Source: an uncultured Mycoplasma sp. (GTDB lineage Bacteria; Bacillota_I; Bacilli_A; RF39; UBA660). From it: a DNA stretch of 59,202 bases. The stretch's first letter is position 1. Each line of letters opens with the position of its first letter. Positions 1,042 through 55,325 of the stretch are shown here, in pieces. Location of the stretch: the NCBI GenBank assembly GCA_946500895.1, contig CAMMXG010000004.1, positions 1-59,202 on the forward strand, written 5' to 3'. The translations under genes and the position numbers were made by a program. The notes below the pieces were generated by a model that was given only the letters and a program-made list of their open reading frames with translations, was not told the origin of the DNA and ran no database searches.

Positions 1042-2734
1042 ATATTTTAAATATTTTATTTTTCTTTTTGAAGTAAACGATTGTTCCTATTAAGAGTAGA
1101 ACTAATATAATGGAAATACCACTAATCATTCCCGTTTGGGGATTTTCAATGTCTACTCCAGTATCTCTTGAAGTTACTGTATCACCTAGTACTACCCCTT
1201 CTATATCATCGTTAGGGTTTGTTAATTCAACGGTAGCATCATTATTTACTTTTCCTGTATCATCTACCTCTGGGGTTGTTTCCTTGCTTTCTACGCTTGT
1301 ATAGACACGAATGGAAGCTTGAACTTTTAATTTATCTCCTAAATCAATCCAAGATTCGCCATCCGTTGACATGAAAGATACACCATTGGTTACTTCAAAG
1401 TTACGATATGGACTGGATGAAGATGCACCTTTCATCGCTACGGGAATTACAATTTCACTCTCTTCATTTGTTTCAAATTTCACAATAACAGAGTATTTAT
1501 CAGTTACATAAATATCTTTATTTGGAACAACACTCATGAAACCAGCATGGGATGTTGTGCCTCTTGCTATTTCTTCATAATTTTTTAAAGATGCATTGCT
1601 AGCATAATAAACTATATAGCTTATTCCTTCTTTGCCTGTTGCAAAAGTTATTTTATCAATTTTTTCGGCAGATGTATTTTTCTTTGTAAAAATATTAGCC
1701 ATATAACTTGCATCTGATTTGCTGGTTAAAGTGACATTGGTTCCTAAATCATCATAGTAATATACTTCATCAGATACATCTAAATCCGTATTGTAAAAAC
1801 CAACTATATTCGTACAAATATTAATATCATCATAAGATACATAAAAATAGCCATTATCGCCAACACTTGTACCATAGGAGTTTTTAACAATCCAAGCACC
1901 TTTTCTAGTAGCGTTCGTGGCAAAGCTTGTTACTTCAACTGTATCATCCCACCCAACAATTGCAACGGCATGATTAGGAATATTAGAACCATTATAGTAA
2001 TAATAAGCGCCTTTTAAATAATTGGTATTGTTCATATCAAAATAAATGCTTGCGGCAAGAGCACCATGATTTACTAAATATTGTTTGATTGTTTCGATAC
2101 TGTTTTCATTGCAGGCACCAGTAGAATTATTCAAGTAAAAAATATCGTCAACATCTACACTTGCTTTTTTATTTATGACGTCCACTTGATTCACTGTTGT
2201 AGTATTATTAATTAAATTCGTAATGGTTGCAAATGGTAATTCACTTTCTTTAATTGGTCCCCAATAGTTTAAGACATAAGCTCCAGTATACTCTAGTTTT
2301 CCACCACTATTAAAGTTTCGGTTAAAAGTAATATAGCTTGGTGTATATAAAGACTTTTGTGTCATTAATTCCAAATGGGCAACACTTAAATAATCCGTAC
2401 TAATATTATTTTTAAGTAAATTCGATTCTATCGCTGCTAATGTAGAAAAAGCCCAACAATCATCACTCGCTCCTTGGTTTCTTACTCCTAAAATATAGCT
2501 ATCTTGTAAAGTGAATTTGTCCATGGAATAACTATTCGAACTTCCAACTAAGCCACTTTCACTTTCTTGTTTGCACATACTTGGCATTACGGTATTTGCT
2601 TTTTCTTCACTACTTAAATTTAACCAAGCAATATATTCATCCGAATATTCACAAAGTTCTAAGTTAACATCAGCTGCTTTTACAGTAGATGCTCCGAATA
2701 AAAGCACGCATACAAACACTACAAACTTTTTCAT
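1040..2734 (-). CDS. secreted papain-like (C1 family) cysteine peptidase with C-terminal cell-wall sorting signal
   Basis: N-terminal signal peptide. Catalytic motifs QGASDDCWAFS (Cys), NHAVAIVGWDD (His) and WIVKNSYG. C-terminus NPQTG + hydrophobic stretch + KKKNK. Confidence 0.8.
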   Translation of the reverse strand: MKKFVVFVCVLLFGASTVKAADVNLELCEYSDEYIAWLNLSSEEKANTVMPSMCKQESESGLVGSSNSYSMDKFTLQDSYILGVRNQGASDDCWAFSTLAAIESNLLKNNISTDYLSVAHLELMTQKSLYTPSYITFNRNFNSGGKLEYTGAYVLNYWGPIKESELPFATITNLINNTTTVNQVDVINKKASVDVDDIFYLNNSTGACNENSIETIKQYLVNHGALAASIYFDMNNTNYLKGAYYYYNGSNIPNHAVAIVGWDDTVEVTSFATNATRKGAWIVKNSYGTSVGDNGYFYVSYDDINICTNIVGFYNTDLDVSDEVYYYDDLGTNVTLTSKSDASYMANIFTKKNTSAEKIDKITFATGKEGISYIVYYASNASLKNYEEIARGTTSHAGFMSVVPNKDIYVTDKYSVIVKFETNEESEIVIPVAMKGASSSSPYRNFEVTNGVSFMSTDGESWIDLGDKLKVQASIRVYTSVESKETTPEVDDTGKVNNDATVELTNPNDDIEGVVLGDTVTSRDTGVDIENPQTGMISGISIILVLLLIGTIVYFKKKNKIFKI

Positions 2735-2825
2735 AATCTATACACTCCTTATTCTTTGATTAAATTATAACATGTTTCATTAATGTTTGACACGCATTTT
2801 ACTATTGTTTACATTTTATTTGCAA

Positions 2826-2850
2826 TTAAAAAGATACCTAAGATGGTATC
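2826..2850 (-). terminator. intrinsic terminator after the 174-aa gene
   Basis: Minus strand GATACC-atctta-GGTATC followed by TTTTTAAT. Confidence 0.55.
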
Positions 2851-2866
2851 CTTCGTTTTATTTGAA

Positions 2867-3391
2867 TTAAATTAAAACATTTTCACCATTTTCACAATGT
2901 TTATAAAAATCTTTCAGTCCAATGTGAAATTTTGGCTTCTTATACTTATAAATACATAAATAATCTGTATCCATAAATTTTAACTTATTGAATTTCTGAA
3001 ATTTTTCTTTTACATCTTTTAATAAATCATATAAACTTAAATATTCGTGAACTCCTCTATTTGGTTCCCAAGCATGTTCAAACCAATAAAATTTTTCTTT
3101 TTCTTCATAAACAATAAACGTATGGGTAAATAATTTTTTAGCATCATAATACACCATAAAGTAAGTATTGAATTTTAACCCTAAATTTTTAAAAATACTT
3201 CTTTCTAATTCCACTTGATCATAACAAGTCCCCACTTTGTTTTCTACTACTTCCTCTGGTTTTTGCAAGACATATTTCTTTTTAAATGATTTGTCAACAT
3301 TAACATAGATATTATGATCAATATCCATCCAACCATACTCAATATCATTTAAAAAACTCATAAGATCCATAACATTATTAATTTGCTCCAT
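2867..3391 (-). CDS. hypothetical protein, possibly a transglutaminase-like cysteine-peptidase fold
   Basis: 174-aa ORF. GTCYDQVELERSIF ... THTFIVY ... FEHAW spacing resembles a Cys/His/acid transglutaminase-like core. Family call is tentative. Confidence 0.4.
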   Translation of the reverse strand: MEQINNVMDLMSFLNDIEYGWMDIDHNIYVNVDKSFKKKYVLQKPEEVVENKVGTCYDQVELERSIFKNLGLKFNTYFMVYYDAKKLFTHTFIVYEEKEKFYWFEHAWEPNRGVHEYLSLYDLLKDVKEKFQKFNKLKFMDTDYLCIYKYKKPKFHIGLKDFYKHCENGENVLI

Positions 3392-7962: not shown

Positions 7963-7991
7963 TTGATAAAAAATTAAAAATATCATATAAT
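7963..7991 (+). promoter_or_regulatory. consensus sigma-A-type promoter firing antisense into the small-peptide gene
   Basis: TTGATA (7963-7968), 17-nt spacer, TATAAT (7986-7991). Confidence 0.5.
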
Positions 7992-7997
7992 ATACAT

Positions 7998-8240
7998 GTA
8001 AGTGTTATTCACTTGGTGGATAACACCTACTTTATCGGTAAGCGCTATGCCTTAGGCTAGCGTCTTTTCTTTTGCTCTTCTCTAATAATAGAGATAAGCA
8101 AAATTATTATAATAAGCAATAGTTTCGTATCACTCATTTGCATCCCCTCCTACTTTCGTAAAAACCCCCTGAACACTCAGTAGTTTAAACTACTAATAAA
8201 AAAGAAAGCAGGCGCTACCACCAGTTAAATAACGGTTATT
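7998..8240 (+). ncRNA. predicted antisense RNA overlapping the 26-codon peptide gene (3' end undefined)
   Basis: Inferred only from the promoter at 7963-7991. There is no ORF of note on this strand. The 5' hairpin is at 7998-8030. Confidence 0.3.
8057..8137 (-). CDS. 26-aa hydrophobic peptide MSDTKLLLIIIILLISIIREEQKKRR (type I toxin-like small membrane protein)
   Basis: ATG lies 8 nt after GGAGG (8141-8150 region). One TM-length hydrophobic run plus a charged tail. It has its own promoter and a long leader, and is below the ORF-track size cut-off. Confidence 0.5.
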   Translation of the reverse strand: MSDTKLLLIIIILLISIIREEQKKRR

Positions 8241-8241
8241 T

Positions 8242-8285
8242 ATTATGAGTGATAATACCAGAAAAATCAAGAAAAACAGTTCGAC
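8242..8285 (-). promoter_or_regulatory. promoter with upstream GTCGAAC box (locus A)
   Basis: Minus strand: GTCGAAC (8285-8279), 8 nt, TTGATT (8270-8265), 17 nt, CATAAT (8247-8242). Confidence 0.55.
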
Positions 8286-8307
8286 AAAAAACGACAAAAG
8301 CAAGAGT

Positions 8308-12712: not shown

Positions 12713-12799
12713 TGGTGCAGGAAAAGAGATTTGAACTCTCACGAATGAAAATTCACTACCCCCTCAAAGTAGCGCGTCTACCTATTCCGCCATTCCTGC
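12713..12799 (-). tRNA. tRNA-Leu (anticodon GAG), type II with long variable arm, CCA encoded
   Basis: Acceptor GCAGGAA/TTCCTGC, anticodon loop TTGAGGG, T-loop GTTCAAATC. Confidence 0.85.
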
Positions 12800-20306: not shown

Positions 20307-20382
<76 letters not shown>

Positions 20383-20389
20383 AAAAAAA

Positions 20390-20466
20390 TGGCGGTTCGT
20401 ACGGGATTCGAACCCGTGATCTTCTGCGTGACAGGCAGACGTCATAGGCCTCTAGACTAACGAACC
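20390..20466 (-). tRNA. tRNA-Asp (GTC)
   Basis: Acceptor GGTTCGT/ACGAACC, anticodon loop CTGTCAC. Confidence 0.9.
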
Positions 20467-20469
20467 ACA

Positions 20470-20546
<77 letters not shown>

Positions 20547-20559
20547 ATGTAAAATTAAG

Positions 20560-20652
20560 TGGCGGAGGAAAAGGGATTCGAACCCCTGCGCCGATTGCTC
20601 GACCTCCCGGTTTTCAAGACCGGTCCCTTCAACCAGACTTGGGTATTCCTCC
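20560..20652 (-). tRNA. tRNA-Ser (TGA), long variable arm
   Basis: GGAGGAATACCCAAGTCTGG..., anticodon loop CTTGAAA. Confidence 0.9.
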
Positions 20653-20676
20653 ATATTTTTTCCGGTTAACAATGAA

Positions 20677-20705
20677 ATTATAGCAAAGATATTTTTACAT
20701 GTCAA
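20677..20705 (-). promoter_or_regulatory. consensus promoter of the four-tRNA operon
   Basis: Minus strand TTGACA (20705-20700), 17 nt, TATAAT (20682-20677), about 25 nt before tRNA-Ser. Confidence 0.7.
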
Positions 20706-20856
20706 CTAATTTCTTTACTTTTTTAAACTTCTATTATTAATTATAATCATATTTTTAAAATATTTCCTAAAAATTAACTATTTTTTGCAAAAAGTACTTG
20801 AAAAAGAAACAAAAACATATTATACTTAAGAAGTCTTATTCATTAAGACAGTGCCT

Positions 20857-20945
20857 GCCCAAGTGGCGGAATAGGTAGACGCACAGGACTTAAAATCCTG
20901 CGGGTGTTAAAGCTCGTGCCGGTTCAAGTCCGGCCTTGGGCACCA
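20857..20945 (+). tRNA. tRNA-Leu (TAA), long variable arm
   Basis: Acceptor GCCCAAG/CTTGGGC, anticodon loop CTTAAAA. TTGAAA-17-TATACT promoter upstream. Confidence 0.9.
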
Positions 20946-24008: not shown

Positions 24009-24860
24009 TTAAATAATACTAAAAATGATAATTGATATGACACTTAGAGAAGTTACGATAACGCTCATTAGTAATAATATATCAACATATCCATTTCCCG
24101 TAGTTATTTTCTTCCCGTATAATTTGTAATAATCCATAGCTTTATTTAATTCATGATCTCTATTTACACTTTCAGCATCTACTTCAAAATATTCATAAGC
24201 TTTATTTTGAGCTTTATTTATTTCTTCGTTGCTCATATTCTTCAAATTAGATAAATTTAGTCCTAATAAGTTTAGCGCTTCTAAATTTAGGTTTCCACTA
24301 ATGGTCTTGTCTAAAGCGATTTCTTTGGTAACATCCATTTCATTTAATTTTGAATAATAATATTTTTCAATGAAATTTAAGTCATCACTATTTAGATATC
24401 CATAGGAATAACGATATGGGTTCGTTGTATGAGATGAATAAATTAAATCCAAAAACGTTTCTTCTTCGGTAAGTGAAACACTACTACTTTTTTTCTTAGC
24501 AACAAACATATCTACTAAATATTTTTGAATACTTATAAAGTATGGATTTTTCTTTTTTATTTTACGTTTTTTATTTTCTACTTCAAATTCATAGAACCTT
24601 AGGAAATCATCCTTAAATAAAGCAATTTCTGATTTGCTAATTCCATATTTTCCTAAATTATTCATAAAAACGATGCTGTTTTTTAAATAATAAGGATTTA
24701 AAATATCTAATTTTCCATAAATTAAAGCAAGTATGCGAATAACAACAATAAGAGAAGTATTGTAGACAACGCTATCTTTATTACTGCTATTTTCAATATA
24801 TAATTTGATTGAATTTTCAAAAGCAATATTCACAAAGTACTCTTCCCTCATATTATTCAC
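24009..24860 (-). CDS. hypothetical protein with C-terminal TM anchor
   Basis: 283-aa ORF with C-terminal VDILLLMSVIVTSLSVISIIIFSII. Confidence 0.5.
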   Translation of the reverse strand: MNNMREEYFVNIAFENSIKLYIENSSNKDSVVYNTSLIVVIRILALIYGKLDILNPYYLKNSIVFMNNLGKYGISKSEIALFKDDFLRFYEFEVENKKRKIKKKNPYFISIQKYLVDMFVAKKKSSSVSLTEEETFLDLIYSSHTTNPYRYSYGYLNSDDLNFIEKYYYSKLNEMDVTKEIALDKTISGNLNLEALNLLGLNLSNLKNMSNEEINKAQNKAYEYFEVDAESVNRDHELNKAMDYYKLYGKKITTGNGYVDILLLMSVIVTSLSVISIIIFSII

Positions 24861-24929: not shown

Positions 24930-25169
24930 TTACTTTCTTTTGATAAAAAATTTATAAACTGGTATATCTAGGGTATTGGCAATATTATTGATTATATTAA
25001 TATTTAAGACTAATTCTTTTCTTTTTTCTTCAATACTTCTTATTAAATTGATATGGATACCACTTAGTTTTGCTAGTCTTTCTTCTGTTAAATATCCATA
25101 TTTCAAGTTATTAGTTCTATAAAAATAAACATTTTCACTAATTGTATTATATAATTCTTTTAAATTCAT
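24930..25169 (-). CDS. small XRE-like HTH protein
   Basis: LTEERLAKLSGIHINLIRSIEEKRK. Start moved to the ATG at 25169, because the upstream part of the track ORF is the terminator-containing leader. Confidence 0.6.
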   Translation of the reverse strand: MNLKELYNTISENVYFYRTNNLKYGYLTEERLAKLSGIHINLIRSIEEKRKELVLNINIINNIANTLDIPVYKFFIKRK

Positions 25170-25178
25170 TTTTCCACC

Positions 25179-25245
25179 AAAAAAAGCACTTGACCCCGAG
25201 GGCATATAAGCCAAAAGAGAGTTTGGAAATTTGGCCAAGTGCTTT
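25179..25245 (-). terminator. intrinsic terminator inside the 5' leader of the HTH gene (leader/sRNA of about 90 nt)
   Basis: Minus strand AAAGCACTTG ... CAAGTGCTTT 10-bp closing stem with an inner GCCAAA/TTTGGC helix, then a U7 run ending 3 nt before the GGTGG RBS. Confidence 0.55.
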
Positions 25246-25273
25246 ATCGCACAGAAAATTTCTGTACAACTAT

Positions 25274-25317
25274 ATTATATATTTACTCTCAGTAATAATC
25301 AAGCAAAAGCGTTCGAC
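25274..25317 (-). promoter_or_regulatory. promoter with upstream GTCGAAC box (locus C)
   Basis: Minus strand GTCGAAC (25317-25311), 8 nt, TTGATT (25302-25297), 17 nt, TATAAT (25279-25274). Confidence 0.6.
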
Positions 25318-25382
25318 AATTTTTGCCAATTTTAATTTTAACTCTTTTTTATATTGCTCATAAAATAAAATAGGTGATATTT

Positions 25383-30161: not shown

Positions 30162-30815
30162 CTAGAATTCTTTGTTTTTAAATATTTTGCAAGAGAATAA
30201 ATAGGAAATATATAATATTAATAAAATTATAAGGATGGCTCCCGCTATTAGAATAACATAATTTGTATTTTCTAAAGCACTAAAGAATTCGGCAATTTTT
30301 AAAGTAGAGTTTTCAAATAAAGAAAGAATAACACCAATTAATAAGGAAACTGCCATAATGGCAATAAATAGAATTACTCTACCTTTTTGGACACCAAATT
30401 TATAAAAACATGGCATCAGTAATGATATTACTAATATTACTCCTATAATAGTAGCAACACTTGATGCAAAAGTACTCATAAAATCCATATCAGGATTAAG
30501 TAGAGGTGTTACTAAGGATAAAATTGCTCCTATTAGAAGAGAGGTTATAATACTCATTAAACTTAAGTAGTATCTTGCTTTTACAATCGTCTTTCTATTG
30601 TATGGTAGGGCTACAATATAAGTATTTGCATTATTTAATTCATCATAACTAAATGTTGATATGACAAGCATAACGATATAAAATGGAATAATAAAGGCAA
30701 TATAAAAGTAGTTTTCCATCATGATAGAAAGAATGATAAACCCTATTATAATTATCATGATATTGCGCATTTGATTTTTTAAAGTTAATAAATCTTTTAA
30801 TATTAATCCTTTCAT
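30162..30815 (-). CDS. ABC-2 type transporter permease
   Basis: Six-TM protein translationally coupled (4-nt overlap) to the ATPase. Terminator AAGTGT/ACACTT+T6 downstream. Confidence 0.7.
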   Translation of the reverse strand: MKGLILKDLLTLKNQMRNIMIIIIGFIILSIMMENYFYIAFIIPFYIVMLVISTFSYDELNNANTYIVALPYNRKTIVKARYYLSLMSIITSLLIGAILSLVTPLLNPDMDFMSTFASSVATIIGVILVISLLMPCFYKFGVQKGRVILFIAIMAVSLLIGVILSLFENSTLKIAEFFSALENTNYVILIAGAILIILLILYISYLFSCKIFKNKEF

Positions 30816-31639
30816 TCTTTTTCACCTCTTAATAATAAATACATCATTTCATCAATATTTGCTTTATCAATATTTAAATCTTTATACTCTTTTTTTATTT
30901 CTTTTTTATTGTCAATTAATACTTCATAATCATATTTGTTTTTACGATAATTAATTGCCTTATTTTTTAGCTTATCAAACATTTCCTTGGTACAGTGAAT
31001 AATTCCATAGTTATCCGTTATATCCATAATAGATTTATTTAAAATGATTTTGCCATTATCAATTAAGACAATGTAATCAGCAATATTTTCTAGGTCACTT
31101 GTAATATGAGAAGATATTAAAATACTGTTTTCATCATTCTCCATAAACTCTCTAAATATGTCTAATACTTCACCTCTTACAATTGGATCTAGCCCGCTTG
31201 TTGGCTCATCTAATATTAGAAGTTTGGGATTATGAGATAAAGATGTTGCTATTTCAAGTTTCTTCTTCATTCCTTTGGATAATGATTTAATCGGTACATT
31301 GTTGGTTAAATTAAATTTTCGTAAATATTCTTTAAATAATTCTTCATTCCAATTTTTATAAATATTTTTCATTATCTTATTAATATCATCAATCTTTAAT
31401 AAATCTGGTAGAAAAGCATCATCTAGAACTATTCCTATTTCTTCTTTGTCTATCATATTTATTGTTCCACTATCCTTTTTAATGATTCCTAGTAATAATT
31501 TTATTAAAGTGGTTTTTCCTGCTCCATTGGCACCAACTAAACCGATTACAGAACCAGCAGGAACATTTAAATTTAAATTATCTAATTTAAAATGTTTATA
31601 TTCTTTTGATAAATTTTTTACACTTATACTATTCATCAA
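30812..31639 (-). CDS. ABC transporter ATP-binding protein
   Basis: Walker A GANGAGKTT, signature LSKGMKKK, Walker B LLILDEPTSGLD. Confidence 0.9.
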   Translation of the reverse strand: MMNSISVKNLSKEYKHFKLDNLNLNVPAGSVIGLVGANGAGKTTLIKLLLGIIKKDSGTINMIDKEEIGIVLDDAFLPDLLKIDDINKIMKNIYKNWNEELFKEYLRKFNLTNNVPIKSLSKGMKKKLEIATSLSHNPKLLILDEPTSGLDPIVRGEVLDIFREFMENDENSILISSHITSDLENIADYIVLIDNGKIILNKSIMDITDNYGIIHCTKEMFDKLKNKAINYRKNKYDYEVLIDNKKEIKKEYKDLNIDKANIDEMMYLLLRGEKE

Positions 31640-32014
31640 TTATTCCTCCTTTAAAAGTGTATCTAACATTTCTTTTATTTCGTGTTCTTCGATATTATAG
31701 GTATGAGCTAAGTTAATCGCTTCACTTAGCTTTTCTTCTATTTTGGTATATATTTCTTCTTTTAGAAATTCTTCACTTTTCTTTTTAACAAAATAACCTT
31801 TTCCAGGAATAGAAGTAATAAAACCATCATGTTCTAATTCTTCATAAGCTCTTTTGGTTGTAATATTACTAATACGAAGATCTTTAGCAAGAGAGCGAAT
31901 TGATGGAAGCATCTCCCCTCCCATTAATTCTCCTTTTAAAATACTTTCTTTGATACTAATCTCAATCTGTTCATAAATTGGGGTATCCACAGAATTACTT
32001 ATGATTATTTGCAA
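31640..32014 (-). CDS. GntR-family (YtrA-like) transcriptional regulator
   Basis: PIYEQIE...LPSIRSLAKDLRISNITTKRAYEELEHDGFI. TTG start at 32014 after GAGGTGA. Confidence 0.8.
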   Translation of the reverse strand: MQIIISNSVDTPIYEQIEISIKESILKGELMGGEMLPSIRSLAKDLRISNITTKRAYEELEHDGFITSIPGKGYFVKKKSEEFLKEEIYTKIEEKLSEAINLAHTYNIEEHEIKEMLDTLLKEE

Positions 32015-32027
32015 ACTATCACCTCTT

Positions 32028-32050
32028 CTGTATATATACACTATATACAG
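32028..32050. promoter_or_regulatory. palindromic operator candidate for the GntR regulator
   Basis: CTGTATATA-N5-TATATACAG, a perfect 9-bp inverted repeat just upstream of the GntR start. Confidence 0.6.
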
Positions 32051-32130
32051 TTTATATGTGTTTGTCAAGTAAAAAATGACTGTTTTGCATATTTTTTTCG
32101 TTTTTACACTATATAATAGCGGGTGATATT

Positions 32131-35069: not shown

Positions 35070-35858
35070 TTAATCAACGTTTACACCTTTATTTAATAAA
35101 ACATTACCTATAAAATAAATCATTAAATTATAGATAGCGTATACAAAAATACCAATTATCATAATGCTTTTTATGGCATTTGAACTCACTTTTATATTAT
35201 TGAAAACGGACATGATATCTGGGCTCAATATTCCTGCCATATATATAATAGCTAAAGAAAATAATGATAATCCCATATATATTCCCATACCAATTAAAAT
35301 TGATTTTACTATTTTCATATTATTACTTCTATGTCCTATTACAATTCCTAATATTCCTGATAGAATCATGAATAAAAATTCAAAAAATATTGTAATTATT
35401 AGAACTATAATTAGACTTAAGGGACTACTATTTAAAAATATGGCAGATTGCTCTAGTGATAATTTTAATGAGTACCATGTAATATCATTTAAGCAAACAA
35501 TAGCAAGACAAATAACAATAATAATAAATGATACGAAGAGAGTAATTATAGCTGTTAAGATTTTGGATAAATAAATTTTATTTTTACTTACAGGGAGAGT
35601 ATGAGTTAAATAAGACTCATCTTTATATATATTTCTTTCAAATCTTACCCAATTTCGCATCAAACAGTTAATTAATATATTAATTAACATAGCAATAACT
35701 ACTCCACTGCATATTTTATCCATGATTAATAAAATCAAAGTTTGATCCACACTTTCAATCATTCTTGTGATGTTCGAGAAAATAATAGCTAAAATATAGA
35801 AAACGACTAAGGGTTTAAAACACCATTTTAAATCATATTTTAAAAGTTTACCTAACAT
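35070..35858 (-). CDS. ABC-2 type transporter permease
   Basis: Polytopic membrane protein overlapping the upstream ATPase gene by 7 nt. Confidence 0.65.
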   Translation of the reverse strand: MLGKLLKYDLKWCFKPLVVFYILAIIFSNITRMIESVDQTLILLIMDKICSGVVIAMLINILINCLMRNWVRFERNIYKDESYLTHTLPVSKNKIYLSKILTAIITLFVSFIIIVICLAIVCLNDITWYSLKLSLEQSAIFLNSSPLSLIIVLIITIFFEFLFMILSGILGIVIGHRSNNMKIVKSILIGMGIYMGLSLFSLAIIYMAGILSPDIMSVFNNIKVSSNAIKSIMIIGIFVYAIYNLMIYFIGNVLLNKGVNVD

Positions 35859-36547
35859 TTAAATCTCCTCCTAAATATTTCATCAATACTTGCTTGTTCT
35901 TTTTTTCTTAATTCATCAGCAGAAGATGTTAAAACGATACTTCCTTTGTCAATAAAAATTACTTCATCTAATATTCTTTCAATATCGCTAATTAAATGAG
36001 TTGAAATAATGATACTGGCACCTTCATTAAAATTAGAAAGTATTGTGTCTAATATATAATCTCTTGTTGCTGGATCTACTCCTCCTAACGGTTCATCTAA
36101 AATATAAATTTCAGCATCTCTACTCATTACTAATATTAATTGTAATTTTTCCCTCATTCCTTTAGACATTTTGCTTACTTTCAAATTAATATCTAAATCT
36201 AGATCTTTTAATAATTTTATAGCTTTTTCTTTATTAAAGTTATCATAAAATTCTTCAAAAAAAGTTAATATTTGTTCAACTTTCATATTTTTATCTAAGT
36301 AGGTTCTTTCAGGTAGATAAGATATTATTCTTTTCGATTCAACACCTGGCTTTTTTCCATTTATTAATATTTCACCACTTGTTGGAGTTAGTAAATCATT
36401 TATTAATTTTATTAGTGTTGTTTTTCCGGTACCATTCTTTCCTAGTAAACCAATGATCTTTCCTTTCGGAATACTTAAATTAATATCTCTTAGTATTTCT
36501 TTATTATCAAAAGTTTTACACAAATGATTACATTTAATTATTTCCAT
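35852..36547 (-). CDS. ABC transporter ATP-binding protein
   Basis: Walker A GKNGTGKTT, signature MSKGMREK, Walker B IYILDEPLGGVD. Confidence 0.9.
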   Translation of the reverse strand: MEIIKCNHLCKTFDNKEILRDINLSIPKGKIIGLLGKNGTGKTTLIKLINDLLTPTSGEILINGKKPGVESKRIISYLPERTYLDKNMKVEQILTFFEEFYDNFNKEKAIKLLKDLDLDINLKVSKMSKGMREKLQLILVMSRDAEIYILDEPLGGVDPATRDYILDTILSNFNEGASIIISTHLISDIERILDEVIFIDKGSIVLTSSADELRKKEQASIDEIFRRRFKC

Positions 36548-36908
36548 CTTTTCCTCCTAATTCTTGCAAGTAACGTATAGCATCTTCATAATTTATTCCA
36601 ATACTTTTCATACTGTTAAGATAATTATTCACTTTTTCTTGGGCAAGTTGTTTTTTTGTTTTTTCTAGTTTTTTTTCATCTTCCGTTACATATTTACCAT
36701 TTGTTCTTTCTGTATAAATTAGTTTTTCGTTTTCTAATTCTACTAAAGCTTTTTGCATTGTATTAGGATTTACCTTCATTGTAAGTGCTAGCTCTCTTAC
36801 AGAAGGAAGTTTACTCCCTTTTTCATATTTTCCCGAAACAATGTCAGTTCTGATCAACTCTACTAATTGAATATAAATTGGTCTTTCATTATCAAAAATG
36901 TAATTCAT
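36534..36908 (-). CDS. GntR-family (YtrA-like) transcriptional regulator
   Basis: PIYIQLVELI...LPSVRELALTMKVNPNTMQKALVELENEKLI. Confidence 0.8.
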   Translation of the reverse strand: MNYIFDNERPIYIQLVELIRTDIVSGKYEKGSKLPSVRELALTMKVNPNTMQKALVELENEKLIYTERTNGKYVTEDEKKLEKTKKQLAQEKVNNYLNSMKSIGINYEDAIRYLQELGGKDGNN

Positions 36909-53032: not shown

Positions 53033-53052
53033 GAATTATTTTGGTGATAAAA

Positions 53053-53505
53053 ATGAAATTTGATAGAATGTTAGAATTAAGAGAAGAAAATAATTTGTTA
53101 CAAAAAGATATAGCTAGCATTTTAAATATATCTGTTGGTACGTATGCTATGAATGAAGAAGGACACGATACTATTACTTTAAAAAATTTAATTAAGTTTT
53201 GTGATTATTTTAATATTTCAATTGATTTTATATTTGGCTTTGCTAATGATAGAAAATATGAAAATTATCAATTAAATTTTAATCCAGAAGTGTTACGTTT
53301 AAGAATTAAAGAAGTCAGAAAAGAAAATAAATATACTCAAGTAATGATTGGAAATTTTTTAAATATCGACCATTCGGTATGGTGTCGATATGAACAAGGA
53401 AAAACAATTATTCCCACTACTTTCCTTTATGAGTTTTGTAATAAATTTTCTGTTAGCGCCGACTACCTCTTAGGTAAAATTGATAGTCCTAAATACCTTA
53501 AATAA
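53053..53505 (+). CDS. XRE-family regulator with two tandem HTH domains
   Basis: LLQKDIASILNISVGTYAMNEEG... and a second unit YTQVMIGNFLNIDHSVWCRYEQG... ATG after GGTGA. Terminator CCTTA/TAAGG+T8 at 53496-53519. Confidence 0.8.
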   Translation: MKFDRMLELREENNLLQKDIASILNISVGTYAMNEEGHDTITLKNLIKFCDYFNISIDFIFGFANDRKYENYQLNFNPEVLRLRIKEVRKENKYTQVMIGNFLNIDHSVWCRYEQGKTIIPTTFLYEFCNKFSVSADYLLGKIDSPKYLK

Positions 53506-53546
53506 CTAAGGTTTTTTTTATTATTTTCGACAAATCGTCGAATTTT

Positions 53547-53590
53547 GTCGAACGCTTTTTCTTGCTTTTTAAAGTACCATCATTCATAAT
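53547..53590 (+). promoter_or_regulatory. promoter with upstream GTCGAAC box (locus B)
   Basis: GTCGAAC (53547-53), 8 nt, TTGCTT (53562-67), 17 nt, CATAAT (53585-90). The box is part of the inverted repeat TTCGACAAA...TTTGTCGAA. Confidence 0.55.
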
Positions 53591-53596
53591 AAAGTC

Positions 53597-53831
53597 TTGA
53601 GCATTAGGCCTGGTGTCTACCAGATAATTCCTGCTATTTGTCTACCTCCTTACCTCTTGAGGTTTTGGTTGATAAACAATAGAAAGGGTTGTGTGGTTAG
53701 TATGAGGAAGTTGTTCCAAATACTTATATCGTGGTTTAGACCAAAAAAGACATCAACCACTATTATTGTGCAAAACAATATAGAGGTTAATGTCTACTCC
53801 AATAACAAGTAGGCATTTAGTCCTAATGCTC
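53597..53831 (+). ncRNA. structured leader/small RNA between the locus B promoter and the helicase gene
   Basis: 10-bp 5'-3' closure GAGCATTAGG (53599-608) / CCTAATGCTC (53822-31), hairpin CTGGTgtctACCAG, and ACCTC/GAGGT helix over a possible SD. Confidence 0.35.
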
Positions 53832-53882
53832 TACTAAATTAAGTTTAACATATTTATAATAAAATAACAAGATGGAGTTTAA

Positions 53883-55325
53883 ATGAAGTTAGAGGTTTTA
53901 GGATATGAACTAGATAAAGAACAAACAAATGCTGCTTTAGTAAATGATTGCAATACAATTATTATTGCAGGTGCTGGGGCTGGTAAAAGTACTACGATGG
54001 TTGGTAAAATTAAATATTTGGTATTATATGAACATGTCCTTTTAGAAAATATTTTATGTATTACTTTTACGAATAATGCAGCGAATAGTTTAGAAGAAAA
54101 AATAAATAAAGAATTGGGATTAAAGGGAAAAGTATATACTTTTCATAAACTTTCTTTAGAAATATTAAAAGAATATCATATTAATTATCGTATTGCTGAT
54201 GCTGATTTATTAGAGTATTTAATTGATGAAATATTTGCTTGTATACACAGCTCTTATTTGGAAAAGTTATTTTTGAATAAAAATTACTTAGAAAGCCAAG
54301 AATTTTTAGATTATAAAAAAGTTATCGCGCGTTTTATTAAACTTTTTATTGCTAACTTTTATGATGCTAAGTATTTTCAAGACATTTTAAGGAAGGCTAA
54401 AAGAAAAGATATGCCTATGTTAAAAATTATTAATAAAATATATGAAATGTATATTTTAGAAAAAGCGTCTTCAGGAATTATAGATTTTGATGATATGATT
54501 TATATGGCAACTAAATTAGTAAAGATAAAAGGCATTAATAGGTCTTATCAATATATTATTGTTGATGAATATCAAGATACCTCTCTTGTACGAGAAAATT
54601 TGGTGCAAGCTATAAAAGAGAAAACGGGTGCTTTTGTTACCGTTGTGGGTGATGATTTTCAATCTATTTATCGTTTTTCGGGTTGTGATATTAATAATTT
54701 TTTGGAATTTAAAAAACATTTTAAGCCAGTGAAAGAACTTTATATTACAAATACTTATCGTAATAGTAAAGAACTAATTTATGTAGCTGGAACTTTCATT
54801 ATGAAAAATCCCAGACAAAGGAAGAAAAATTTGAAATCTGATAAAAGTATTGCTAAACCTATTGTCATATGTTATTACAAAAATATAAAAAATGATTTTT
54901 ATAAACTTTTAAATATAATCCATTCTCCTAATTTAATGATACTGGGTAGAAATAATGCTGATATTTATAAAGTATTAAATGATAAATTAAAATTTTTTAA
55001 TAACAAAATCATTTTAGATGATTATAATATCTATTATAAAACCATTCATAAAGCGAAAGGATTAGAAGAAGATAATGTGTTAATTATTAATTTATCTAAT
55101 GATACAAATTCTCTTCCCTCTAAAATAAAAGATGAAAAAATATTAAGGTATGTAATTAAACATTTTGATATCTATCCTTTTGAGGAAGAACGAAGACTAT
55201 TTTATGTAGGAATTACTCGTACTAAAAATTACTGCTATTTATTTGTTCCTAAAGATAACCCTTCGATATTCGTTAAAGAATTACAAAAAAATTATAGAGA
55301 ATATATCTCTATAATAAATCTTTAA
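53883..55325 (+). CDS. UvrD/Rep/helicase IV-like superfamily 1 DNA helicase (compact, 480 aa)
   Basis: Walker A AGAGAGKST, DEYQDTS (motif II), VVGDDFQSIY, TIHKAKGLEED, FYVGITRTK. Confidence 0.85.
   Translation: MKLEVLGYELDKEQTNAALVNDCNTIIIAGAGAGKSTTMVGKIKYLVLYEHVLLENILCITFTNNAANSLEEKINKELGLKGKVYTFHKLSLEILKEYHINYRIADADLLEYLIDEIFACIHSSYLEKLFLNKNYLESQEFLDYKKVIARFIKLFIANFYDAKYFQDILRKAKRKDMPMLKIINKIYEMYILEKASSGIIDFDDMIYMATKLVKIKGINRSYQYIIVDEYQDTSLVRENLVQAIKEKTGAFVTVVGDDFQSIYRFSGCDINNFLEFKKHFKPVKELYITNTYRNSKELIYVAGTFIMKNPRQRKKNLKSDKSIAKPIVICYYKNIKNDFYKLLNIIHSPNLMILGRNNADIYKVLNDKLKFFNNKIILDDYNIYYKTIHKAKGLEEDNVLIINLSNDTNSLPSKIKDEKILRYVIKHFDIYPFEEERRLFYVGITRTKNYCYLFVPKDNPSIFVKELQKNYREYISIINL

Follow-up and report, generated by a model that had tools for sequence, protein, structure and literature searches.

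What factor, if any, reads the box shared by three promoters of identical geometry in contig CAMMXG010000004.1, a stretch of 59,202 nt (hereafter the window, meaning this stretch at its full length) from an uncultured Mycoplasma sp.? These promoters, termed loci A, B, and C, each carry a GTCGAAC box at a fixed distance from a sigma-A-type core, and a first-pass annotation of the DNA had attributed them to a small dispersed regulon served by an activator or other factor, through a motif not known to it. We propose that the box belongs to Spo0A, the master regulator of entry into sporulation, and that loci A, B, and C are probably sigma-A-type promoters with tandem Spo0A boxes, controlled by phosphorylated Spo0A (Spo0A~P) and probably activated by it.

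The pattern GTCGAAC-N8-TTGNTT-N17-NATAAT has exactly three matches in the window, at 8242-8285 (minus strand, locus A), 25274-25317 (minus strand, locus C), and 53547-53590 (plus strand, locus B), and none in 100 dinucleotide-preserving shuffles of the window, which bears out the earlier claim of three equal-geometry promoters together with its coordinates. The 23-nt core TTGTCGAACNNTTTTNCTTGNTT recovers the same three places only, with three mismatches permitted and 0.03 matches expected, and the motif is therefore all-or-nothing within the window; the 9-mer alone, with one mismatch, shows no enrichment there (8 found vs 6.9 expected). In an alignment of 300 nt around each site, the likeness among the three loci is limited to about 27 nt, and the flanks are unrelated. 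The first description also holds for the 8-nt linkers (TGTTTTTC, GCTTTTTC, and GCTTTTGC), for the box duplicated directly at locus A, and for the inverted copy at locus B. The promoter elements are as follows.

8290..8296, minus strand: locus A distal 0A-like box TGTCGTT, as read in the sequence, 10 nt upstream of the proximal box
8280..8286, minus strand: locus A proximal 0A box TGTCGAA, a perfect match to the literature consensus
8242..8270, minus strand: locus A core promoter, -35 TTGATT (8265-8270), 17-nt spacer, -10 CATAAT (8242-8247); 9/12 consensus matches, predicted start near 8235
25322..25328, minus strand: locus C distal degenerate box TGGCAAA, 10 bp upstream of the proximal box
25312..25318, minus strand: locus C proximal 0A box TGTCGAA, as read in the sequence
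25274..25302, minus strand: locus C core promoter, -35 TTGATT (25297-25302), 17-nt spacer, -10 TATAAT (25274-25279); 10/12 consensus matches, predicted start near 25267
53526..53532, minus strand: locus B inverted perfect 0A box, reading TTCGACA on the plus strand
53536..53542, plus strand: locus B distal box CGTCGAA (6/7), 10 bp upstream of the proximal box
53546..53552, plus strand: locus B proximal 0A box TGTCGAA, as read in the sequence
53562..53590, plus strand: locus B core promoter, -35 TTGCTT (53562-53567), 17-nt spacer, -10 CATAAT (53585-53590); only 8/12 consensus matches, below the promoter-scan threshold of 9/12, predicted start near 53597

The box and its factor are already textbook matter, and judged by their sequence the three promoters belong to the known Spo0A sites. 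The 0A box has a 7-bp core, TGTCGAA, with A/T flanks; it is one and the same for Spo0A of C. difficile and of Bacillus, and many documented sites are pairs of boxes with 3 bp between them, bound by a dimer (PMC3485338, PMC2731898). Loci A, B, and C all have the perfect TGTCGAA core with TT upstream, and each has a second box 3 bp away, giving a 10-bp period: TGTCGTT at locus A, CGTCGAA at locus B, and TGGCAAA at locus C, the last being kept as TTGGCAAAA or TTGGTAAAA in all 10 of 10 orthologous loci. The first-pass statement that no such motif was known thus falls, both for the core and for the paired arrangement.

It is extremely unlikely that the box is instead the site of another global regulator, such as LexA, CtsR, or PurR. 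The LexA Cheo box reads CGAAC-N4-GTTCG, so that CGAAC would be a half-site, and E. coli type I toxins are SOS-controlled, with a UvrD-like helicase also found among the genes driven here; however, the second half-site is TTTCT in the main form of the element and is absent in linker variants (gaaatata, gataatta), for which LexA was rejected. CtsR sites, (A/G)GTCAAA-NAN-(A/G)GTCAAA, are heptad direct repeats with the same 10-bp period and lie upstream of clp or chaperone genes, whereas the present box begins with T or C where CtsR has a purine, every proximal box has G at position 5, and neither clp nor groE genes occur among the cargo. The PurR PurBox (AWWWCCGAACWWT) fails at about four flanking positions.

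The combination of box pair and core promoter (hereafter the module) recurs widely. A scan with the 23-nt core over one genome per prokaryotic species returned at least 106 loci, against a chance estimate of about 4 (19 fixed bases). Among the matches listed, about 75 of the 106 loci fall in one group of uncultured Bacilli metagenome-assembled genomes (MAGs), comprising Mycoplasma sp. CAG:776, UMGS1172, Ca. Caccenecus, and the BRZ and Lapin bins, and about 26 in Clostridia; none falls in Lactobacillales, Staphylococcales, or true Mycoplasmatales. Three of the listed loci bear non-Firmicute labels, two of them without a -10 element and the third identical to Clostridiales loci and therefore probably a binning artefact. 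A phage origin of the module was considered and rejected, the module being present on just two viral contigs. Module-bearing Bacilli MAGs are syntenic with the window at 78-92% nucleotide identity, and the sequencing runs that contain the window are chicken-gut metagenomes. Single MAGs hold at least 8-10 module copies, so that of the small dispersed regulon first suggested, the dispersion stands and the smallness does not. In community assemblies (runs X24-X27), a promoter core of about 33 nt at window positions 53533-53569 joins many different flanks, with a depth several-fold above that of its surroundings, an independent sign of a dispersed repeat.

Because the first search constrained the proximal box and only portions of the linker and the -35 element, the remaining positions provide a fair test of the geometry. 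In the logo of 81 non-redundant sites from other genomes, a second TGTCGAA-like box appears exactly 10 bp upstream, and although this box was unconstrained, its information content peaks at G2 (1.42 bits), C4 (1.76 bits), and G5 (1.11 bits). These most constrained positions agree with the Spo0A contacts reported for the box, namely G2, C4, and G5 (PMC3485338). A forward box matching at least 6/7 stands at offset -10 in 33 of 79 non-redundant sites vs 0.09 expected per offset, with minor peaks in the same set at -23 and, inverted, at -31. The equally unconstrained -10 element (YATAAT) lies at a fixed 17-nt spacing from TTGNTT, with A2 in 71/81 and T6 in 70/81 sites. In a further scan, of metagenomes, both boxes and TTGNTT were constrained and the 8-nt linker was left free, which gave 63 sites, about 55 of which are low in guanine + cytosine (GC) and have the -10 element at its unchanged place; their linkers are mostly G-N-TTTTT-C, while the variants gaaatata, gataatta, and gattctta retain the geometry, which is therefore conserved beyond mere sequence. 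The earlier idea of a factor-binding site in fixed phase with a sigma-A-type promoter is thus supported by more than 150 sites elsewhere that keep the geometry, and further by the appearance of the -10 element and of the second box at positions that the searches had left free.

Two other arrangements of 0A-type boxes were seen in these genomes. At L012 (near 7982, minus strand), L057 (near 7387, minus strand), and L080 (near 3879, minus strand), the sequence TTGACA-tgttt-TGTCGAA-TATAAT is conserved, with a consensus -35 and a -10-like hexamer on either side of a perfect 0A box, an arrangement suggestive of repression and not of activation. At L159:2716-2747 (plus strand), taken with 20 nt upstream, four tandem 0A-type boxes follow one another with a 10-bp period (tgtcgctttt tgtcgaattt TGTCGAAata TGTCGAAC) and precede a gene for a CpaF/TadA-like ATPase, on a contig of 53% GC.

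Is Spo0A present in this lineage? Among the window's genes are those for SpoIVA (E = 5.7e-115, truncated at the window edge) and for further sporulation-type proteins, namely YutH-like and YsxE-like spore-coat kinases and a PdaB-like deacetylase, and RF39-type uncultured Bacilli are predicted in the literature to form spores, with regulation unlike that of their relatives. A 17.6-kb contig of the same lineage (L152; 29% GC), which carries a family A peptide gene behind a module as well as a family B gene (both families are described below), encodes a 257-aa (amino acid) protein that passes the curated NCBI equivalog model for Spo0A, TIGR02875, with 243.8 bits vs a cut-off of 200. This protein is 38% identical overall to B. 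subtilis Spo0A, with an identical recognition segment (TTASRVERAIRHAIEV); its effector domain aligns to the Spo0A structures 1LQ1 and 1FC3 over 113 residues, and its close homologs form a family of 257-aa proteins, some of them named Spo0A [Bacilli bacterium]. A Spo0A 91% identical to it is encoded on BRZ_DD__NODE_2231, which is also the contig of module-bearing locus L086, in a MAG that has at least 10 modules, about 88% nucleotide identity and synteny to the window, and the nearest orthologs of window loci B and C. The spo0A genes of the lineage carry a tandem TTCGACA-n3-TTCGACA about 110-120 nt upstream of the ATG, kept across diverged orthologs, and this serves as a positive control, in agreement with the 0A boxes of spo0A promoters in Bacillus and C. 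difficile (PMC3485338, among other sources). The factor came to light only once the metagenome scan had added L152: Spo0A was not found among the first 108 loci, a protein search with B. subtilis Spo0A gave Bacillus-like matches only, and a receiver-domain match in L079 was rejected, the protein being a hybrid histidine kinase. The gene lies (L152:1341-2114; L171-L182, gene at 2501-3274) within a glycolytic row, pgk-tpiA-spo0A-gpmI, adjoined by a divergent SpoIID gene, a neighbourhood that to our knowledge differs from that of spo0A in Bacillus.

What, then, do the modules drive? Downstream of loci A and B lie the following features.

8057..8137, minus strand: family A peptide gene, an open reading frame (ORF) of 26 aa (MSDTKLLLIIIILLISIIREEQKKRR), type I toxin-like
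8002-8026: hairpin at locus A, belonging with the predicted convergent antisense unit
7963..7991, plus strand: predicted antisense-RNA promoter of locus A, TTGATA-17-TATAAT, convergent, 11/12 consensus matches
53702..53812, plus strand: family B peptide gene, a conserved ORF of 36 aa (MRKLFQILISWFRPKKTSTTIIVQNNIEVNVYSNNK)
53842..53870, minus strand: predicted antisense promoter of locus B, TTGTTA-17-TAAACT, a weak match (family consensus TTGTAT-17-TATACT)
53883..55325, plus strand: UvrD-like helicase gene, 480 aa, downstream of peptide B

Family A peptides have 24-28 aa, with an I/L-rich core and a basic tail. For the locus A mRNA (about 8235 to about 7995), the predicted fold joins the 5' and 3' ends and buries the ribosome-binding site (fold z = -7.95); an antisense RNA predicted from 7963-7991 (plus strand), with its start expected near 7998, would overlap the 3' end of the family A mRNA. 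A promoter of at least 10/12 stands at the matching place in 7 of 22 family A copies, and weaker TTGTAT-type promoters were seen at other copies inspected by eye. At locus B, the supposed 285-nt leader of the helicase gene proves to be a misreading, for it holds the conserved family B ORF. Family B peptides have 27-45 aa and the conserved motif KK(T/A)STIIIV.NN..VNVY, with third codon positions the most variable; they are amphipathic and beta-rich rather than plainly hydrophobic, so that family A resembles type I toxin peptides well and family B less so. The 5' end of the locus B mRNA (about 53599-53610) is predicted to pair with 53820-53831 (fold z = -6.27). A stringent scan for convergent promoters in family B found none, whereas inspection of the 3' flank revealed a weaker reverse-strand promoter just past the 3' end, conserved in position and sequence across copies and matched weakly in the window; the antisense RNA predicted there would start near 53834, inside the conserved GTAGAGCATTAGG segment. 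Given the peptide, the end-paired mRNA, and the candidate convergent or reverse promoter, loci A and B have a predicted type I toxin-antitoxin (TA) anatomy, and we regard both as type I TA-like peptide genes of presumed toxicity. The helicase gene follows peptide B with no predicted terminator between them, and at L014 and L034 the module drives a UvrD-like helicase ortholog directly. Elsewhere in the window, two pairs of GntR (PmtR-like) and ABC ATPase (PmtA-like) genes (30812-32068 and 35852-36908, minus strand) resemble phenol-soluble-modulin exporters and could bear on small-peptide export or immunity.

At locus C, the helix-turn-helix (HTH) gene that had been named as cargo is found in only 3 of 10 orthologous loci, and the conserved cargo is a terminated small RNA.

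25172..25267, minus strand: locus C small RNA, about 95 nt, with a 5' hairpin and a long terminator helix (fold z = -3.8)

The terminator helix encloses an invariant 32-nt CU-rich core (UUUCCAAACUCUCUUUUGGCUUAUAUGCCCUC) amid variable stems. The RNA occurs in one copy per genome, with 10 orthologs that share the invariant core, including those at L015, L017, L021, L026, L049, L069, L081, L098, and L104. It has no significant Rfam match (best Ref64, 20.9 bits vs a gathering score of 44.3). The possibility that it is a trans partner of the family A and B mRNAs was examined and rejected, since duplex energies of the core were no better than those of shuffled sequences (z of about +0.5). In all orthologous loci, the RNA is followed by a gene for a conserved 280-aa protein (MREEYFVNIAF...; 24009-24860 in the window, minus strand). 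The gene has an extended -10 promoter of its own, and its product, which has a hydrophobic segment at the C terminus, matched neither Pfam nor NCBIfam. Across the window, Rfam reported only tRNAs at the gathering score, in a five-gene cluster (20310-20942) and at 12716-12799; with these tRNAs and with SpoIVA, Der, PyrG, HisS, MurB, MurG, and ThiI, the window is ordinary chromosome and not a mobile element.

Among 160 listed module sites, 87 drive peptide families A, B, or C (38 family A, 32 family B), 10 the small RNA, and 45 other cargo, the three multi-copy peptide families accounting for 54%. Counted as other cargo are additional mini-peptides, Rpn/YhgA-like PD-(D/E)XK proteins, orphan histidine kinases, which we count in favour of Spo0A, and OppA-like, AbiEi-like, and cold-shock proteins. 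Family C consists of Clostridia-like 21-aa peptides (MKKIIQLVAMILIYLISKSDN) behind the module, each with a terminator. Its loci are L114, L139, L165, and L047 (two copies each), along with L124, L167, L118, L133, L055, and L074, and a TTGACA-like element lies downstream on the opposite strand. Rpn/YhgA-like PD-(D/E)XK 'transposase' genes (Pfam PDDEXK_2, Transposase_31) are direct cargo in both the Bacilli lineage and Clostridia (L010, L032, L071, L087, L101, L031, L140, and L157).

The dominance of three multi-copy families, whose copies are clearly homologous within each family, invites the explanation that no dedicated factor exists and that a promoter cassette of about 27 nt has spread with selfish toxin genes, its likeness to the 0A box being coincidental; by our estimate, a 7-mer match to some known motif within a 23-nt block is not very improbable. 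Common descent would account for the likeness inside a peptide family. As a full account it is nevertheless highly unlikely: the module stands before unrelated cargo of many classes in two classes of bacteria, and neither the -35/-10 spacer nor the flanks are conserved between classes. Moreover, the distal box varies from site to site yet retains G2, C4, G5, and the exact 10-bp phasing, which argues for selection on binding rather than shared descent.

A different candidate reader is suggested by the genes next to the module. The first-pass claim of an XRE neighbourhood is real, and the association is stronger than was put: XRE-type ORFs are about 9-fold denser near the sites, at 0.092 per kb within 1.5 kb of sites vs 0.0099 per kb elsewhere in those loci. 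At about 25 sites, the box is preceded on its own strand, at a distance of 36-48 nt, by the end of a gene whose XRE-type product has about 150 aa and two HTH_3 domains; a family A or B gene lies downstream, as is the case at locus B.

53041..53505, plus strand: double-HTH XRE-type gene, about 150 aa, two Pfam HTH_3 domains, ending about 40 nt upstream of the box; its product is RstR-like at 76 bits, just under the cut-off

The adjacent protein might therefore read the direct repeat itself, with one HTH per box, making the module the operator of an XRE-peptide cassette; two HTH domains per chain could fit two boxes 10 bp apart. We consider this improbable. Among 23 double-HTH paralogs (median identity 52%, minimum 36%), both predicted recognition helices vary while the box is invariant; the region upstream of the XRE gene itself has no box; and perfect modules occur with no XRE gene near, as upstream of loci A and C, at L014 and L034, and in the Clostridia-like family C. 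The enrichment is, in addition, inflated by orthologous and paralogous copies of a single cassette. For these reasons the XRE proteins probably do not read the box; one may speculate that they act on copy-specific sequence instead, such as the variable -35/-10 spacer.

Returning to Spo0A, its mode of action may be envisaged as follows. Each site would consist of a sigma-A-type promoter with a weak -35 element, preceded by a head-to-tail pair of 0A boxes 10 bp apart, at about -61..-55 and -51..-45 from the predicted start, the proximal one ending 9 bp upstream of the -35. A dimer of Spo0A~P bound to both boxes would govern RNA polymerase at the promoter next to them, so that rising Spo0A~P would switch two type I toxin-like peptide mRNAs (A and B) and one small RNA (C), probably along with the helicase behind locus B. 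If Spo0A~P activates, toxin mRNA would gain relative to antisense RNA only upon accumulation of Spo0A~P. Binding by Spo0A, the places where transcription starts, the direction of control, and peptide toxicity are inferred from sequence. An activator role of the box-binding factor, as first proposed, is plausible, and we somewhat favour activation over repression, because the core promoters are poor (8-10/12; -35 TTGCTT or TTGATT), in contrast to the near-consensus convergent antisense promoter of locus A (11/12). At spoIIG, upstream 0A boxes stimulate transcription, and activation needs contact between Spo0A and sigma-A.

Several observations weigh against this proposal. The gene spo0A is not within the 59 kb of the window, its product being identified in close relatives instead; the canonical early sporulation genes spoIIA, spoIIE, and spoIIG were not found among the module cargo; and, outside the module, perfect 0A boxes show no excess (67 observed vs 50-77 expected). 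The preference for a G-N-TTTTT-C linker is unexplained by Spo0A alone, and the tight linkage of double-HTH genes to about 25 sites leaves room for a local reader. RNA-type assemblies yield low-depth contigs, in which 53690-53900 and 25043-25372 appear better covered than their flanks; some of them span the promoters, so that starts cannot be placed. As to direction, tandem boxes just upstream of the core promoter A2c of phages phi29/Nf, 3 bp apart and partly within the core, mediate repression (PMC2731898), and the boxes at B. subtilis spo0A have been modelled as mainly repressive. By analogy, Spo0A could bind the tandem boxes as a repressor, in which case growing cells would produce the peptides, the small RNA, and the helicase and cease to do so at sporulation entry. 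We judge this rather unlikely: with a gap of 9 bp, the proximal box does not overlap the -35, and the weak cores fit dependence on an activator, as at spoIIG.

Part of the annotation changes: the locus B leader becomes a peptide gene, the locus C HTH gene ceases to be the conserved cargo, and the unnamed box becomes a Spo0A site. Novelty seems to lie in how rigid the module is, how often it occurs in uncultured gut spore-formers, and which cargo it prefers. For gut spore-formers that cannot be cultured, the module would mark the Spo0A regulon at the level of sequence, and a simple pattern suffices to find it. The predicted highest-affinity Spo0A sites would belong to genes of very small toxin-like peptides, of small RNAs, of Rpn-like nucleases, of orphan kinases, and of a helicase, and not to the sporulation machinery. 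More tentatively, the hard-wiring of multi-copy type I toxin-like genes to tandem Spo0A sites may possibly amount to a developmental, Spo0A-gated programme of toxins and nucleases, present in one lineage of uncultured spore-formers of the gut and, through different peptide families, in gut Clostridia. It would include the Rpn-like nucleases and the UvrD-like helicase, and the cassette XRE proteins would add copy-specific repression. If true, such a programme might enforce commitment, bring about lysis or silencing of the mother cell, or protect the cell from phage while it sporulates. The purpose of chromosomal type I TA systems is an old open question, and a promoter wire from Spo0A to toxin, opposed by the near-consensus antisense promoter at locus A and by predicted weaker ones in family B, would be a testable answer here. 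A link of 0A boxes or sporulation entry to type I toxins is absent from the literature searched; a review of type I TA systems in Clostridia reports sigma-A and sigma-B promoters with no mention of Spo0A control, and reviews of Clostridia type I and B. subtilis TA systems report only indirect Spo0A effects.

Among known Spo0A targets, spoIIG and spoIIE of B. subtilis likewise have 0A boxes upstream of, and adjoining, a sub-optimal core, where Spo0A~P stimulates transcription and contacts sigma-A. The spoIIG promoter is reportedly one with 'weak 0A boxes', in the wording of a paper title, whereas the two boxes of the module are consensus or near-consensus and its -35/-10 spacer has a normal 17 nt. 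The module also differs from spoIIG and spoIIE in its rigid geometry over more than 150 sites and in a cargo that is not sporulation machinery. Low-threshold Spo0A targets are said to include, in work attributed to Fujita et al. 2005, the skf and sdp cannibalism toxin operons. These B. subtilis operons likewise place toxic peptides under early Spo0A control through high-affinity sites; however, they encode exported killing factors together with immunity genes, while the module peptides of 21-45 aa lack an export signal, are multi-copy, and have predicted antisense RNA partners and locked mRNAs in the manner of type I TA systems. Two TGTCGAA-type boxes 3 bp apart, bound by a Spo0A dimer, are found in like form at abrB, in phages phi29/Nf, and in structure 1LQ1 (PMC3485338, PMC2731898). 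At abrB and in phi29/Nf, they serve repression from within or downstream of the promoter, unlike the module pair, which lies wholly upstream of the -35.

Among TA systems, hok/sok, fst/RNAII, tisB/istR, and C. difficile CD0956.2/RCd10 share with loci A and B a tiny hydrophobic peptide and, as predicted here, an end-paired mRNA with an occluded ribosome-binding site and a convergent antisense promoter. The gating of E. coli tisB, symE, and dinQ by LexA, a global stress regulator, provides the precedent of toxins under central control and, together with the skf and sdp operons, the closest parallel in function. No sequence kinship of the module peptides to a known type I TA family was found, and they depart from known type I TA systems in that family B is amphipathic and beta-rich and in that many copies are paired with a double-HTH gene.

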